In this document: piece after piece, positions 8,822-41,758 of the stretch | Layout of the letters: every line of letters starts with the position of its first letter | Position numbering within the stretch: position 1 is the first letter of the stretch | NCBI GenBank assembly: GCA_963842525.1 | Contig: CAWJGT010000020.1 | Coordinates: 64,001-128,000 of the forward strand | DNA: 64,000 bases | Origin: an uncultured Holophagales bacterium | Lineage (GTDB): Bacteria; Acidobacteriota; Thermoanaerobaculia; Multivoradales; UBA5704 | Direction of reading: 5' to 3' | Made by a program: the position numbers and the translations under genes | The notes under the pieces: generated by a model | What the model saw: the letters and a program-made list of their open reading frames with translations, nothing else | What the model was told of the DNA's origin: nothing | Database searches by the model: none

Positions 8822-8898
8822 GCGGCTATAGCTCAGGTGGACAGAGCAGGAGTTTCCTAAACTCTTGGTCGGGGGTTCGAGTCCTCCTAGCCGCACCA
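8822..8898 (+). tRNA. tRNA-Arg(CCT)
   Basis: Acceptor stem GCGGCTA/TAGCCGC, D arm GCTC..GAGC, anticodon loop TT-CCT-AA, T loop TTCGAGT, encoded CCA end. Confidence 0.95.
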
Positions 8899-11541: not shown

Positions 11542-15611
<4,070 letters not shown>

Positions 15612-33189: not shown

Positions 33190-33508
33190 ACGGGTTGCCG
33201 TTCGCGTATCTACCGGGCGCTGGCCACGCCCGGCGCGCCTGCTTTCCCGCGACATCCTCCCCTGTGGAGGTACAACCGCGGCAGTCGCCTGCCCCGAACG
33301 TCACTTGAGGAGAATCGTACACCCTCTCGACCATCAACCCTGCTACTTAGGGCTCGTCACGAAATAAGTGTCGCAGTTTCGGTCTTCCAAAGAAGCTCGC
33401 CAGCGATCCAGGAAGGTTCTCACCGCAGAGCCCGGTCTATCGTGTCATGCTGAACGGGAGTGTAGGATCTAGGGCGGGAAGCCGGCAGTCCTGCTGGTCC
33501 CGCGGACT

Positions 33509-34021
33509 GGTTCGACTCCCCGCGGTGGATGGAGCTGCTGCCGCGGTGGGCGTTGCCGCCGCCGCGGCAGCGGTTCGACTTCCCGCGGTGGCTGTAGCTG
33601 GTCCCGCGGTGGGCGTTGCCGCCGCCGCGGCAGCGGTTCGACTTCCCGCGGTGGCTGTAGCTGGTCCCGCGGCGGGCGTTGTCGCCGCCGCGGCAGCGGT
33701 TCGACTTCCCGCGGTGGCTGTAGCTGGTCCCGCGGTGGGCGTTGCCGCCGCCGCGGCAGCGGTTCGACTTCCCGCGGTGGCTGTAGCTGGTCCCGCGGCG
33801 GGCGTTGTCGCCGCCGCGGCAGCGGTTCGACTTCCCGCGGTGGCTGTAGCTGGTCCCGCGGTGGGCGTTGTCGCCGCCGCGGCAGCGGTTCGACTCCCCG
33901 CGGTGGCTGTAGCTGGTCCCGCGGCGGGCGTTGTCGCCGCCGCGGCAGCGGTTCGACTCCCTGCGGTGGCTGTAGCTGGTCCCGCGGTGGGCGTTGTCGC
34001 CGCCGCGGCAGCGGTTCGACT
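33509..34021. repeat. 63-bp tandem repeat (8 full copies), each of three 21-bp CCGCGG-cored subunits
   Basis: GGTTCGACT starts at 33509, 33572, 33635, 33698, 33761, 33824, 33887, 33950 and 34013. Confidence 0.95.
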
Positions 34022-37897: not shown

Positions 37898-38451
37898 AGC
37901 CGGGGGTCCGGGTCACCGGGGGGGCGCACCGCGGGCGCGGCCTCGCCGTGCCTCCAGGGGCGCGGCCGACCGAGGGGAGGGTCCGCGAGGCGCTCTTCTC
38001 GATCTGGGGCGACCGCCTGGAAGGTGCGCGGGTCCTCGACCTCTTCGCCGGCAGCGGCATCGTCGGCCTGGAGGCCCTGAGCCGGGGCGCGCTCTCGGCC
38101 CTCTGCGTCGACGAGAGCCTGCGGGCGGTCCAGATGATGGAGCGCAACGCCGGGCTCCTCCAGGAGAAGGCCGCCGAAATCCGCCGCCTCACCCTGCCCG
38201 CCGGCCTGGCGCGTCTGGTCGCGGAAGGCGCCGGCCCGTTCGACCTCGTCTACATCGACCCCCCCTATAATTTCAATCTATATGACGAGCTGCTCGCCGC
38301 CCTGGCGCCACTCCTGACGAAGCACGCCGAGGTGGTCGTCGAGCACTCCTCGCGGCGGGACATGCCGATCCAGGCAGGACCGCTGGTCCGGGTGGATGCG
38401 CGACGGTATGGGGAAGGCTCGCTGAGCTTCTATCGCTGGGAGCCAAGGTAG
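37894..38451 (+). CDS. rsmD: 16S rRNA (guanine966-N2)-methyltransferase
   Basis: RPTEGRVREALFS, VLDLFAGSG..GLEALSRGA and DPPY motifs. Confidence 0.92.
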   Translation: MKPGVRVTGGAHRGRGLAVPPGARPTEGRVREALFSIWGDRLEGARVLDLFAGSGIVGLEALSRGALSALCVDESLRAVQMMERNAGLLQEKAAEIRRLTLPAGLARLVAEGAGPFDLVYIDPPYNFNLYDELLAALAPLLTKHAEVVVEHSSRRDMPIQAGPLVRVDARRYGEGSLSFYRWEPR

Positions 38452-38468
38452 GGGAGAATGGGGGGGCG

Positions 38469-40184
38469 ATGACACCTGAACGGCTCCGGCAGCTCCTTGG
38501 CGGCGAGTCCCTCGAAGTCGAGTACAAAAGCGAGCGGAGAGGGCCATTCAACGACCGGGATCTGGTCGAGGCAGTGGTCTGCCTGGCCAATCGGCCGGGA
38601 ACTGGAACCGGCTACCTCCTCCTCGGAGTGGAGGACGATCGCCAGGTGACCGGCGCCAGACCCCGGCACGAAAGCGGTCGGCGGACCGATCCTCTTCTCG
38701 TACAGACATTGATCGCTCACCGGACCAGCCCCTCCCTCATCTGCCGAGCCGAGGTGGTGCCGGTTGAAGAGCGCGAGGTTCTGGTCATTGAGGTACCGGT
38801 CTCAGCAGTGCCGGTCTGCACCACTGACGGAACCTATACGAGGCGAAGGCTCGATCGGCAGGGGCGGCCGGAATGTGTCGCCTTCTCTTATCACGACATG
38901 CAGACGCAGCGGGCCGACCGGGGTCTCCTCGACTACTCTGCCCAGGTTGTCCCCGAAGCGCGGTGGGAAGATCTCGATCCCCTGGAATTCGAGCGGTTTC
39001 GCCGTAACATCCGGGAGAGCGTAGGGGTCGGAGATCGCGCCCTCGATGAGTTGCCGGACTTGGAACTCGCCAAAGCTCTGGGGGCTGTGGAGGCGAACCA
39101 TGAAGTCCGAGCGATTCGGATCCTGGGTCTGTTGCTCTTCGGCACCCCTGAGGCGCTCGGCAAGTGGATCCGCCCCTATGAGGTTGCCTTTCAGGTGCTT
39201 TCCCCTCAGGTCGAGGTCAACGACTTCTTCCACTGGCCGTTGCTGCGGGTGATCGACGAAGTCCTCACCCGCTTTCGTGCCCGCAACCGGGAGGATGAGA
39301 TCTTCGCCGGATTCCAGCGAATCGGAGTTCCCAGCTACTCGGAAATCGCTTTCCGCGAGGCCGTGGCCAACGCCCTCATTCATCGAGATTACACACGCCT
39401 CGGCGCAGTCCACATTCAATGGTGGCCGGATCGGATCGAAATCTCAAACCCCGGAGGGTTTCCTGAAGGCGTCCGGCTCGACAACCTGCTCGACACTACA
39501 CCGCGGCCCCGGAACCCGCTCCTGGCAGACGCTTTCAAGCGAGCCGGAATCGTGGAGCGGACGGCCCGCGGCATTGACACGATCTTCTATGAGCAGCTTC
39601 GGAATGGACGGCCGGAGCCTGATTATGGGAGGACTTCCTCGACGAATGTCGTCCTCGTCCTCCCCGGAGGCGCCGCGGATCTGGCTTTCGTCCGCCGGGT
39701 CGTGGAGCGAGGCCTCGCCGGTGAGCGGCTGGGCCTGCCTTCGCTCCAAGCGTTCTGGCAGGAATGGCAAGGAGCCAAAGCTCAATCCTCGCCCGAGCGC
39801 CTCTTGGAGCCCACCGGTGAGGATGGGCTGATCATCATCTCCATTGGAGGCGAATCCATTCGGCCGACTGTCGAGGCATCCCTTGAAGAGTTGGGTCTTC
39901 ATCCAGCCCTCGTTCTCGTCGACTTCCACTCCACCGAATACGTGGCGCCGGAAAGGAGGGGATGGGAGGCGGAAGCACGGCAGATCCGGAATCTCGTCAA
40001 GAGCTTCGTTGAAGACCCCCGCGTCTCGCGCCTCCACCTCTTCTATCGCGGGCCCGTGGTCCTGGCCCCTTTGCTCGGGGCCTTGATTGCACCCGTCAAG
40101 CCTCTGATCGTCTATTATTACCAGGACGGCGGCTACCGGCCGGCGTACACCTTGAACAGGAGGTTCCTCATCTCCAGAGATTGA
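38469..40184 (+). CDS. Schlafen/AlbA_2 plus HATPase_c_4-type ATP-binding protein with a C-terminal SAVED-like lobe
   Basis: GESLEVEYKSE..VCLAN..GYLLLGVEDD (AlbA_2); REAVANALIHRDY..IEISNPGG..PRNPLLA (HATPase_c_4); C-terminal RLHLFYRGPVVLAPLLG..LIVYYYQDGGY resembles the SAVED C-terminal motif. Confidence 0.8.
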   Translation: MTPERLRQLLGGESLEVEYKSERRGPFNDRDLVEAVVCLANRPGTGTGYLLLGVEDDRQVTGARPRHESGRRTDPLLVQTLIAHRTSPSLICRAEVVPVEEREVLVIEVPVSAVPVCTTDGTYTRRRLDRQGRPECVAFSYHDMQTQRADRGLLDYSAQVVPEARWEDLDPLEFERFRRNIRESVGVGDRALDELPDLELAKALGAVEANHEVRAIRILGLLLFGTPEALGKWIRPYEVAFQVLSPQVEVNDFFHWPLLRVIDEVLTRFRARNREDEIFAGFQRIGVPSYSEIAFREAVANALIHRDYTRLGAVHIQWWPDRIEISNPGGFPEGVRLDNLLDTTPRPRNPLLADAFKRAGIVERTARGIDTIFYEQLRNGRPEPDYGRTSSTNVVLVLPGGAADLAFVRRVVERGLAGERLGLPSLQAFWQEWQGAKAQSSPERLLEPTGEDGLIIISIGGESIRPTVEASLEELGLHPALVLVDFHSTEYVAPERRGWEAEARQIRNLVKSFVEDPRVSRLHLFYRGPVVLAPLLGALIAPVKPLIVYYYQDGGYRPAYTLNRRFLISRD

Positions 40185-40201
40185 AGAGGTCAGGGATGGC
40201 T

Positions 40202-40483
40202 TGACACAAGGCCCTCCGTCGCGCGAGCGGCGGATGCAAATCGGGTGAATTGCCGGAAAGCCCGGGGACGGGTCACCGGCAGCCAAGGCCGGCATGGAGG
40301 ATCGCGATCCGAGGGGCTGGCAAGGTTCAGAGACTAGGACCCGAGCGAAAGCGGTAATGGTCCCACGAGCGCCCGACGCCTCCCTCGGGAGGCGATGAGA
40401 TAGTCCGTTCTACCGACATGATCCGGTGTTTCTTGAAACGGTAGAAGCCGGGGATAAAGAGCCTCGGCGGTAACAAACCCTGG
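40202..40483 (+). ncRNA. Group I intron-like ribozyme, ORF-less and intergenic
   Basis: P/Q/R/S elements AATTGCCGGAAA, CCGGCAGCCAAG, GTTCAGAGACTA and GAGATAGTCC; P3 40241-47/40370-76; P4 40251-56/40276-81; P7 40330-36/40401-06; P8 40377-94; P9 40408-15/40439-46; GNRA loops on P2 and P5. Ends approximate. Confidence 0.88.
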
Positions 40484-40558
40484 CTAAAGTTCCCAGGACC
40501 TCTTCAGCGGCAGCTCATTTTTTCGCCTGACCGGATAGAATCCCCCTCGCCAACGGTC

Positions 40559-41758
40559 ATGCGTCCCATCTCCCAACGCCGGCGCGCCGGCACGCCCTTC
40601 GGCTGCCTGATCCTGTTCTTCGGGATCTTCCTCGCCTTCGGCTCGGTGTTCCTGTACTTCTTTTTCCTGCGGCCGGTCGGAGGCCTGCTGGCAGCCCGCT
40701 CCTGGACAGAGGTGTCCTGCGTGGTGCTGGAGAGCCGGGTGGCCGAGAGCTCCGACTCGGACGGGACCACCTACAAGCCGGACATCCTGTACTCCTACTC
40801 GGTCGGCGGCATCGTCCATCAGTCCCGGCGCTACGACATGATGGAGGCCTATTCGAGCGGCTATGACGGCAAGGCCGAGATCGTGGCCCGCTACCCTCCC
40901 GGCAGGCAGACCTCCTGCTGGGTCGATCCCGCCAACCCGAACGAGGCGGTGCTCTCGCGAGGCTTCTCGGCGGCCTATCTGGTCGGGCTCTTCCCGCTGA
41001 TCTTCGTGGCTGTCGGTGCCTTCGGGCTCATCTGGGCGGTGCGCCAGAAGAACAAGACGCGCACAGCGGCGGCGCGGACGGGTGGCCCTGGCGACATCGC
41101 CTCTCCTTTCGGAGTCCAGATCCCCACCGAAGCCGCGGGTCCACTGGAGCTGCGGCCCAAGATGACGCGCCTCGGCAAGCTGCTCGGCCTTCTTTTCGCC
41201 AGCGTCTTCTGGAACGGGATCGTCTCGGTCTTCGTCTGGCAGGCCGTACAGCTCTGGCGGCAAGGACAACCGGACGGCTGCATGACCACGTTCCTGATCC
41301 CCTTCGTCCTGATCGGCCTGCTCCTGATCTTCGGCGTGTTCCAACAGCTCCTGGTGCTGTTCAATCCCCGTCTGAAGATCACGCTCAGCCGGGGTGTGCT
41401 CGCGCCGGGAGAGCCCGTCCACCTCCAATGGACGCTCTCGGGACGGGCTGCCGGTGTCCACCGCCTGCAGATCGTGTTGGAAGGGAAGGAAGAGGCCACC
41501 TACCGCCGCGGCACCGACACCTGCACCGACCGCGAGACCTTCGCCTTGGTCACGGTCGTCGATACGACCGAGCCCTTCACGATCCCGGCCGGCTCGGCGC
41601 CTCTCGAAGCGCCCGCCGGGACCATGCCCTCGTTCGCAGCCGAGCACAACAAGATCATCTGGACGCTGAAAGCTGTCTGTGAGATCCCCGGCTGGCCCGA
41701 TTCCGAGGACGAGTACGAGATCCTGGTGGCCCCCGGGAGCTATGGAGGCTGGTCGTGA
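40559..41758 (+). CDS. DUF3592-domain membrane protein
   Basis: TM helix, then SW.EV.C.VLES.V..SDSDGTTYKPDILYSY..C.VDP.NP.EAVL; further TM helices and a soluble beta domain. Confidence 0.75.
   Translation: MRPISQRRRAGTPFGCLILFFGIFLAFGSVFLYFFFLRPVGGLLAARSWTEVSCVVLESRVAESSDSDGTTYKPDILYSYSVGGIVHQSRRYDMMEAYSSGYDGKAEIVARYPPGRQTSCWVDPANPNEAVLSRGFSAAYLVGLFPLIFVAVGAFGLIWAVRQKNKTRTAAARTGGPGDIASPFGVQIPTEAAGPLELRPKMTRLGKLLGLLFASVFWNGIVSVFVWQAVQLWRQGQPDGCMTTFLIPFVLIGLLLIFGVFQQLLVLFNPRLKITLSRGVLAPGEPVHLQWTLSGRAAGVHRLQIVLEGKEEATYRRGTDTCTDRETFALVTVVDTTEPFTIPAGSAPLEAPAGTMPSFAAEHNKIIWTLKAVCEIPGWPDSEDEYEILVAPGSYGGWS

Follow-up and report, generated by a model that had tools for sequence, protein, structure and literature searches.

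A group I ribozyme in the 3′ untranslated region of a SAVED-type sensor gene, with relatives beside cyclic-oligonucleotide signalling genes in at least five bacterial phyla

The 64,000-nucleotide (nt) stretch of contig CAWJGT010000020.1 from an uncultured Holophagales bacterium, here called the window and used for all coordinates, carries on its forward (+) strand a group I ribozyme that follows the stop codon of a gene for a protein with a SAVED-type C-terminus, as listed in Table 1. The best reading is that it belongs to a previously undescribed family of group I ribozymes located in the 3′ untranslated region (3′ UTR) of cyclic-oligonucleotide sensor genes. Gene and ribozyme lie between an RsmD-like gene and a gene for a DUF3592 protein, and the gap between these two neighbours (38452-40558) is a variable slot. 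In a sister species (L169, G001), the same gap holds a different open reading frame (ORF) of 390 amino acids (aa) without a Pfam match, which indicates that the gene and the ribozyme come and go as one exchangeable unit. The first-pass annotation of the window, made from the letters alone, had described a complete ribozyme lying free between genes and had offered two explanations, a domesticated regulatory or processing ribozyme or a recent ectopic insertion.

In a scan of the whole window with Rfam at gathering thresholds (cmscan), the group I catalytic intron model RF00028 (Intron_gpI) matched positions 40162-40425 (+) at 55.9 bits, against a cut-off of 50 bits, with an E-value of 1.7e-11 and over model positions 1-253 of 253; other matches in the window were to tRNA only. 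The same model gave no second group I match in the 9.95-Mb genome assembly (34 contigs, 96% complete), and it scores the relatives described below at 58.9-77.5 bits. This significant covariance-model match bears out the claim of a complete group I ribozyme, and the helices from P1 to P9 with a further 3′ hairpin were found where they had been drawn by eye, including the U40201·G40210 wobble and the bulged A, with 98% of the alignment cells paired. Compared with the proposed positions 40196-40485, the conserved element is slightly larger and extends over 40183-40505 when counted from its closing helix. The Rfam alignment places P1 wrongly at 40166-40189 and stops before P9.1, and the relatives support the P1 of the first-pass annotation.

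The fold was evaluated on an alignment (A2) of 23 distinct sequences of the ribozyme family, including that of the window, using a structure drawn up for this analysis to which P1 and the P7 pseudoknot were added, so that it comprises 74 pairs in 14 helices. Of 1701 cells, 98.1% are paired, and 34 of the 74 pairs change on both sides. None of 500 shuffled alignments reached any of the five measures, and when the 3′ partners were slid by 1-3 columns, pairing fell to 28-45%. RNAalifold applied to the same alignment gave 66 pairs, 33 of them with compensatory changes. The pseudoknotted P3-P7 core, together with P4-P6 and P8, is therefore backed by covariation, and even the +1 pair of P1 covaries, being U-A, C-G or, in one copy (L121), A-U. 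The U·G wobble at the 5′ splice site, P7 with its bulged A, the joining segment J8/7 and the 3′ G are invariant in all 23 rows. Within P7, G40332-C40405 is presumably the guanosine-binding pair according to the general group I model. The intron sequences are on average 78% identical, whereas the adjoining 390 nt of coding DNA are 59% identical (44% at the amino-acid level), and in each of the 78 pairs the intron is the more conserved of the two. Purifying selection on the intact core is strong.

The two strands that flank the ribozyme are complementary (Table 1), and an equivalent helix of different sequence is found in every relative. When the exons are joined at the predicted splice sites, they fold as a stem-loop in all 35 loci in which both sites could be placed; 36 loci were tried, and one (L102) has no placed P1. 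The mean pairing energy is −25.1 kcal mol−1 for cognate flanks, compared with −16.1 kcal mol−1 (standard deviation 5.7) for non-cognate and −15.5 kcal mol−1 for shuffled flanks, and the cognate partner ranked first or second in 21 of 34 loci, where the ranks are blurred by flanks shared among close relatives. The complementary flanks at this locus and in the relatives indicate that the ribozyme is situated in the loop of a 3′-UTR hairpin, much as tRNA introns are situated in the loop of the anticodon stem. The earlier view of a ribozyme lying free without a recognizable host gene is therefore not maintained, because its place is a hairpin loop in the 3′ UTR of a SAVED gene and this association with the gene is the rule across phyla.

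The flanks do not constitute the halves of a tRNA, rRNA or protein gene, which the first-pass annotation had considered as the mark of a routine intron. ARAGORN found no tRNA in 39900-40800, RF00028 was the sole Rfam match there at E ≤ 1, and the joined flanks give a hairpin only. Because 17 nt separate the stop codon from the 5′ splice site downstream of it, the protein cannot be altered by splicing; an extension of the reading frame by this route was rejected, as every locus read has its stop codon ahead of the 5′ splice site. Two further roles for the closing helix were considered and rejected. As an intrinsic terminator it is disfavoured because a scan of 38000-41000 gave three sites (1.9 expected from shuffling), none of them at the helix or beyond the element, and because several relatives have a separate terminator-like hairpin 10-40 nt beyond the element, as judged by eye. 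Translation coupling through a stop codon always contained in the helix is not seen, as the distance ranges from 0 to about 35 nt (by eye). No sigma-70-like promoter was found between the gene and the ribozyme in the scan of 38000-41000. The absence of a homing endonuclease or transposase stated in the first-pass annotation was confirmed: no such ORF lies within 40184-40505, and no such neighbour is common across the loci. Three ORFs of at least 60 aa overlap the element. One is the partner gene, with its 3′ end, and the others run on the minus strand (39444-40295 and 40484-41647) and lie outside the family scan.

The C-terminus of the partner protein matches the Pfam SAVED profile at 27.8 bits (cut-off 26.2), the match being limited to positions 118-189 of the 190 in the profile, and PADLOC assigns the protein to SAVED4--SAVED_TM with an E-value of 4.3e-11. 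A profile of 18 C-terminal modules (A3) matches the SAVED proteins 9r8s, 9eyi, 6vm5 and 6vm6 in the PDB with E-values of 2e-6 to 9e-5. The AlphaFold2 model has a mean predicted local distance difference test score (pLDDT) of 76.7, and residues 80-200 of the model, its last 120 or so, mostly exceed 90. Its best Foldseek matches, over 111-129 columns, are the SAVED domains of Cap4, Cap5, SAVED-CHAT, CalpL and a viral SAVED ring nuclease. By the criteria of both sequence and fold, the C-terminus is thus a SAVED domain, with a match of about half the full length.

The distribution of the ribozyme was determined by two pattern scans that specify ribozyme bases only and contain no protein criterion. 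The first used 23 bases from P7 and J8/7-P7′ and covered one genome per species for 185,579 species, and it returned 90 stretches that fall into two classes. The members of class A are tRNA introns inserted in the anticodon loop. When run with introns permitted, ARAGORN recognizes an intron-bearing tRNA in 48 of the 69 segments, and in many of the remaining segments an HNH-type ORF pushes the 5′ exon out of the segment. This class (L009-L098) is spread over Burkholderiales, Acidobacteriota, Hymenobacter, Saccharibacteria, Chloroflexota and cyanobacteria, and one of its contigs (L028) carries two intron-bearing tRNA copies in tandem. Class B is the family of the window ribozyme and comprises 23 distinct loci including the window, after removal of five duplicates and a false flag (L082); none of 22 class B segments gave a tRNA call with ARAGORN. 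Its hosts are Thermoanaerobaculia and other Acidobacteriota, the myxococcotal Haliangium, Polyangium and Kofleriaceae, Actinoplanes of the Actinomycetota, the cyanobacteria Stenomitos and Nodosilinea, and candidate division KSB3, making at least five phyla in total. The second scan, with a family-specific pattern, added 31 stretches from metagenome contigs and no locus from viral contigs, and blastn of 40184-40505 against plasmid and phage records gave no match. A separate RF00028 scan of 92 genomes from the bacterial family of the window found matches in six, namely the genome of the window and five of a sister genus (58.9-67.7 bits). In each of those five, the stop codon of a homologous gene closely precedes the ribozyme, and the downstream gene is different and convergent.

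The distinct ribozymes of both scans and one from the protein-first search described below were pooled into a set of 48 sequences; in 38 of them, the upstream part was long enough for classification. As many as 36 of these 38 follow a gene of cyclic-oligonucleotide signalling. A gene ending in a SAVED module precedes the ribozyme in 31 cases, including one with a frameshift that was assigned by eye (L103); in three, the gene encodes a transmembrane (TM) coiled-coil protein matching PADLOC C3a59 with E-values of 4e-5 to 6e-10; in one, a CARF protein (PDLC01168, E-value 1.3e-11); and in one, a CD-NTase (SMODS, E-value 2e-24). The last case (L108, from a metagenome contig) is a CBASS-like (cyclic-oligonucleotide-based antiphage signalling system) operon, oriented as 2-1768, in which a 2TM protein (PADLOC Mem_02/C3a55) is followed by the CD-NTase and the ribozyme stands at the 3′ end. 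In most classed loci, the stop codon lies 145-177 nt before P7. No other neighbouring gene besides the upstream one is common across the lineages. The N-terminal domains fused to the SAVED module vary and include SLFN with a winged helix-turn-helix (wHTH), an AAA-ATPase with PD-(D/E)XK, HTH_3 and wHTH alone; ParA/MinD-like ATPase fusions occur in 6 of 62 proteins (P0002, P0046, P0048, P0051, P0053, P0056). For the C-terminal domain of the C3a59-type proteins, the ESM Atlas gave NARF (PF20299) with a score of 0.89, which is below the bar of the tool and serves as a lead only.

Two incomplete copies were also recorded. In a species of the same genus (L003, identical with L062; G003:C405, about 12897-13001), a 105-nt piece of the core from P6′ to P7′, 81% identical, lies in an unrelated context near a contig end, without P1-P5, P9 or a SAVED gene, and looks like a decayed remnant. 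The second, on a metagenome contig (L102), agrees with the family pattern around P7 but yields no P1 upstream and lacks the GAUAAAGA motif of P9.1 downstream; it is a partial or rearranged copy.

The opposite direction was covered by starting from the protein in 644 genomes, made up of 92 from the family of the window, 251 from the family of the Polyangium carrier and 301 from the order of an acidobacterial carrier. Among the 92 genomes, homologues of the N-terminal 435 residues occur in 62; for query residues 447-571, matches are confined to the six genomes that bear the ribozyme. Over aa 1-435, the nearest homologues are 65% and 63% identical; they end in another, wHTH-like C-terminus and are without an RF00028 match even at an E-value of 0.1. 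With the A3 profile, the full module was found in 2 of the 251 and 2 of the 301 genomes. Two of these genomes, G560 and G917, were new. Although the ribozyme patterns had missed them, RF00028 scores the ribozyme immediately behind their module genes at 65.5 and 60.6 bits. In total, the ribozyme lies directly downstream in 10 of 10 genomes with the full module, so that the co-occurrence holds from ribozyme to gene and from gene to ribozyme, and no intron-less allele of the module is found among these ten. A search of 401 genomes across the phylum with the 130-aa module as a single query retrieved, besides the window, nothing but one weak relative of 29% identity that lacks the ribozyme.

The intron and the module also diverge together, with a Spearman coefficient of 0.57 between their identities over 253 pairs and none of 2000 Mantel permutations reaching the observed value. 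As the copies moreover differ by 2-33% in sequence, the recent ectopic insertion suggested by the first-pass annotation is contradicted, whereas its other suggestion, a domesticated regulatory or processing ribozyme, fits the comparative data. The ribozyme and the last 130 or so codons behave as a single cassette that is inherited together and combined with various effector domains.

The 3′ end of the intron is marked by an invariant GCU, followed after 1-4 bases by a conserved AG; the arrangement GCU-N1-4-AG is also seen in the metagenome copies. Judged from the aligned sequences, G40483 is the likeliest ωG, with the 3′ splice site predicted after it. In most copies, the two bases before G40483 can pair with the CCGU after P7 (by eye), and in the cyanobacterial copies the equivalent of G40483 directly follows a small hairpin. 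Possible uses of the fixed bases beyond it include pairing of the AG with the CU that ends the 5′ exon, an alternative substrate GCU for the guide GGC, which is the pairing chosen by RNAalifold, and a second 3′ splice site. In the tails of four copies (L045, L065, L111, L123), GGCUAAG is repeated at a distance of 15-25 nt or directly preceded by a small hairpin, which hints that the motif matters in its own right.

Table 1. Positions of the partner gene, the ribozyme elements and the downstream gene in the window
Feature	Position	Strand	Description
Partner gene	38469..40184	+	571 aa; stop TGA 40182-40184; SLFN/AlbA_2-wHTH-SAVED
Domains of partner protein	aa 13-127; aa 313-392; C-terminus		SLFN/AlbA_2 (Pfam E-value 5e-13); HATPase_c_4, wHTH-type (4e-19); SAVED-type (2.5e-6)
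SAVED-like sensor module	39792..40181	+	aa 442-571; about half of a full SAVED; protein part that co-occurs with the ribozyme
Closing (exon) helix, 5′ strand	40183..40191	+	GAAGAGGUC; overlaps stop codon; perfect 9-base-pair complement of 40497-40505
P1 hairpin	40198-40202 with 40209-40213	+	GGCUU with AGGCC (internal guide); U40201·G40210 wobble; predicted 5′ exon end GGCU
Intron proper	40202..40483	+	282 nt if ωG is G40483; basis: RF00028 match, covariation, invariant G of GCU
P2	40215..40234	+	GCGA loop; 7 of 8 pairs compensatory
P3	40241..40247 with 40370..40376	+	3′ strand CGCCCGA; 100% of cells paired; 2 pairs covary
P4-P5-P4′	40251..40281	+	P5 loop GGGA; basis: tested helices 4 and 5
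P6/P6a/P6b	40282..40326	+	All 6 P6a pairs covary
P7	40330..40336 with 40401-40406	+	GAGACUA with UAGUCC; A40331 bulged; invariant in 23 of 23 rows
P7.1-type hairpin	40337..40363	+	Between P7 and P3′; GAAA tetraloop; 2 pairs covary; also in related tRNA introns
P8	40377..40394	+	3 pairs covary
J8/7 and P7 3′ strand	40395..40406	+	AUGAGA and UAGUCC; invariant
P9	40408..40446	+	Long loop with conserved AUAAUCC...GAAA-type segments (window: AUGAUCC...GAAA)
P9.1 hairpin	40447..40468	+	Invariant loop core GAUAAAGA; family-specific; 5 of 7 pairs covary
Single-stranded tail	40469..40482	+	GGUAACAAACCCUG; AACA invariant
GCU and AG motif	40483..40489	+	GCU 40483-40485 invariant (23 of 23 rows), then AAAG with conserved AG 40488-40489
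Closing (exon) helix, 3′ strand	40497..40505	+	GACCUCUUC; pairs with 40183-40191
Downstream gene	40559-41758	+	DUF3592 protein; starts 54 nt after the element

That RNA and sensor are paired repeatedly, in at least five phyla, speaks for a ribozyme in the service of the gene and against a stray intron. The reading preferred here, to which we assign a probability of roughly 0.55 on the basis of sequence comparison, is that of a domesticated, probably self-splicing 3′-UTR ribozyme that serves as a cis partner of cyclic-oligonucleotide sensor genes. The ribozyme would be transcribed together with the sensor gene, and a guanosine nucleotide bound in P7 would attack after GGCU (U40201), whereupon the freed 5′ exon would attack after G40483. 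During these steps, the closing helix would stand in for P10 and hold the exons together. The products would be an mRNA with a re-sealed terminal stem-loop and a released structured RNA of 282 nt, which may be a cis-acting control element or partner of the sensor-effector mRNA or its protein.

Several observations weigh against this reading. Passive co-inheritance would produce the same co-divergence and linkage. The scans require exact patterns, so that the census is biased towards close relatives, and all counts come from related sequences and are not independent events. Two of the 38 classed copies look intact and have no sensor gene, as one follows a DUF1501 gene (L050) and the other a DUF4058 gene (L015). 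Homology between the SAVED module and the C-terminal domain of the C3a59-type proteins was tried and rejected (hhalign probability 7.4%). The CD-NTase operon (L108) is the sole classed locus in which a cyclase is the gene adjoining the ribozyme; since a cyclase and not a sensor adjoins it there, the link is to the signalling operon and not, in the strict sense, to the sensor domain. Either G40483 or G40489, which is also conserved, may mark the 3′ splice site. No complementarity was found for a P10 pairing of the guide with the 3′ exon, and none is possible because the P1 loop varies while the start of the 3′ exon, CU..AG, is fixed; the exon-exon helix may replace it. Finally, a search of sequencing runs for the ribozyme region returned no RNA run and one DNA run with a small share.

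The main rival explanation, live if unlikely, is that the element is a selfish relic, that is, a tRNA anticodon-loop intron that lodged once in the 3′-UTR hairpin of a SAVED gene and has been carried as a passenger, being kept as its splicing restores a needed hairpin. The nearest relatives are indeed tRNA introns with the same P7, J8/7 and P7.1-type hairpin, as the 48 ARAGORN calls among 69 segments illustrate, and several of them contain HNH endonuclease ORFs. The exon helix mimics an anticodon stem, co-divergence is expected of a passenger, and both the orphan copies (L050, L015) and the decayed fragments (G003/L062, L102) accord with such a history. A precedent for selfish introns settling at terminator hairpins is provided by group IIC introns, according to the available passages of PMC9481103. 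The relic explanation is weakened, however, because no empty allele exists among the ten module genes, all of which carry the ribozyme, because the RNA is more conserved than the adjoining coding DNA in every one of the 78 pairs, and because the ribozyme recurs behind several dissimilar partner types. These are at least three types without detected mutual similarity (SAVED, CARF and C3a59-type) in addition to the CD-NTase, all of one pathway, a recurrence that a passenger does not predict. In addition, the element has no endonuclease or mobility gene, and there are no copies in the phage, plasmid and viral collections searched.

It is distinctly unlikely, in our judgement, that the ribozyme is itself the active signalling part of a minimal immune module, in which either the sensor reads an RNA product of the ribozyme or the ribozyme reads the cyclic-oligonucleotide signal. 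In the second form, the ribozyme would sense a signalling nucleotide through the guanosine site or through P9, P9.1 and the tail, and would thereby change its reaction and adjust the fate of the effector mRNA to the signal read by the sensor protein. Several kinds of cyclic-oligonucleotide signalling genes adjoin the element, and the single-stranded segments GAUAAAGA and AACA are invariant and absent from the related tRNA introns; an allosteric group I ribozyme is also known as a precedent from the available passages of PMC9481103. Against this stand the position in the 3′ UTR instead of the 5′ UTR and the lack of a known aptamer, since nothing but RF00028 matches in Rfam at E ≤ 1 within 39900-40800, and the invariant segments may be ordinary tertiary contacts. 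On balance, ligand sensing by the ribozyme appears improbable.

In the other form, the RNA is, or makes, the ligand of the sensor, which we consider quite improbable. The excised intron or the spliced hairpin would occupy the sensor in an antitoxin-like or activating manner, or a small oligonucleotide would be derived from the GCU|AAAG end, where GCU and the guide GGC would pair as an alternative P1 for attack by the terminal G, possibly giving a small circle. The scarcity of cyclases lends this idea some appeal. Among the 38 classed loci, only L108 has one next to the ribozyme; among 79 neighbouring ORFs of the non-redundant loci, none was found in the 25 of 32 matched PADLOC families that were listed. 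At the window, no CD-NTase is present among the neighbouring ORFs, so that the locus does not qualify as CBASS, and the genome gave no match to the SMODS or PDLC00773 cyclases. Moreover, GCU and AG are invariant without a reason based on splicing, and RNAalifold pairs the guide with GCU. Nevertheless, L108 possesses its own CD-NTase, the would-be product varies among close relatives (AAG, AAAG, UAG, GAG, CGAG), which fits a loop better than a specific ligand, and the chemistry for so small a circle is unproven. A protein cyclase may also exist in trans, in view of a weakly Csm1/Cas10-like ORF in the same genome.

This ORF of 894 aa was observed on contig 14 (G000:C14:144310-159671), outside the window, between two further SAVED genes that lie about 15 kb apart. 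Its match is 28.8 bits, far below the cut-off, and no Cmr2 match was obtained in the genome. The pair and the ORF may represent a divergent type III-like signalling locus, and a protein source of cyclic oligoadenylate in trans is possible.

The remaining explanation, a 5′-UTR element regulating the downstream DUF3592 gene, has the same strand and the short distance of 54 nt in its favour, but it can be practically discounted because the downstream gene differs or is convergent elsewhere, only the upstream gene is conserved, and same-genus relatives have the DUF3592 gene without the ribozyme.

The group I introns of Azoarcus tRNA-Ile and Anabaena tRNA-Leu are the textbook examples of insertion in tRNA anticodon loops. 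The class A introns have the core of the present family, including P7 and J8/7 segments of identical sequence and the hairpin that separates P7 from P3′, and in both groups the exons pair around the insertion site and many copies lack an internal ORF. They differ in that the exons of the present family are the strands of a 3′-UTR hairpin (no tRNA call in 22 segments, compared with 48 in 69) and in that it adds P9.1 with the tail and keeps GCU..AG fixed behind the 3′ G. With respect to the protein, the partner resembles Cap4 and Cap5 of CBASS and the SAVED/CARF effectors of type III CRISPR (clustered regularly interspaced short palindromic repeats) systems, in which a C-terminal SAVED-type sensor is fused to varied effectors. 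Unlike in the Cap4/Cap5 systems, the module has about half the SAVED length, a cyclase adjoins in only one of 38 loci, and the constant neighbour is a ribozyme. Retron non-coding RNA (ncRNA) and ToxI of type III toxin-antitoxin systems are structured RNAs that are encoded beside a defence effector and inherited together with it. However, they are not group I ribozymes, and for the present RNA a binding role is a hypothesis; to our knowledge, no RNA of the retron ncRNA or ToxI type is known beside SAVED or CARF sensors.

The closest functional parallel is the c-di-GMP-II (cyclic di-GMP)/group I ribozyme of Clostridioides difficile (Lee et al. 2010), which the available passages of PMC9481103 describe as the only known natural allosteric ribozyme, found in one species. 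Like the present element, as far as these passages go, it is a group I ribozyme in the untranslated region of an mRNA, concerned with gene control instead of the repair of an interrupted gene, and linked to a nucleotide second messenger. It differs by its location in the 5′ UTR, its adjacent aptamer and its restriction to one species, whereas the present family is found in the 3′ UTR, without a known aptamer, in at least five phyla. The window element thus lacks the two hallmarks of that system, an adjacent aptamer and a position in the 5′ UTR, as it follows a stop codon. Group IIC introns are similar in that they avoid ORFs by sitting at the hairpin after a gene, as described in the same passages of PMC9481103; they are a different ribozyme class, mobile and encoding a reverse transcriptase, whereas the present element has no mobility gene and is tied to one module.

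Full-text searches of papers available without subscription returned nothing in which group I ribozymes are connected to SAVED, CARF, CBASS, cyclic oligonucleotides or anti-phage defence, and the passages found in a 2026 review of defence systems (PMC12948488) contain no group I ribozyme. Bacterial group I ribozymes have been treated as selfish introns, with the allosteric ribozyme of C. difficile as the one exception known from the passages cited above, and the finding reported here would be a second such case that is much more widespread. If the link is functional, a catalytic RNA joins the parts list of CBASS and type III-like immunity, and the element provides a natural 3′-UTR group I device, a compact self-excising RNA with a built-in exon clamp. 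Should the ribozyme be an active signalling part, cyclic-oligonucleotide immunity would rely on a catalytic RNA in place of, or alongside, a protein cyclase or regulator.

Two further features of the window were noted. The tRNA gene at 8822-8895 is ordinary (63.5 bits) and unrelated to the ribozyme. The interval 33500-33999 is a local outlier in composition, with a GC content of 0.758 and an AT skew of −0.587, values that differ widely from those of the adjacent intervals.

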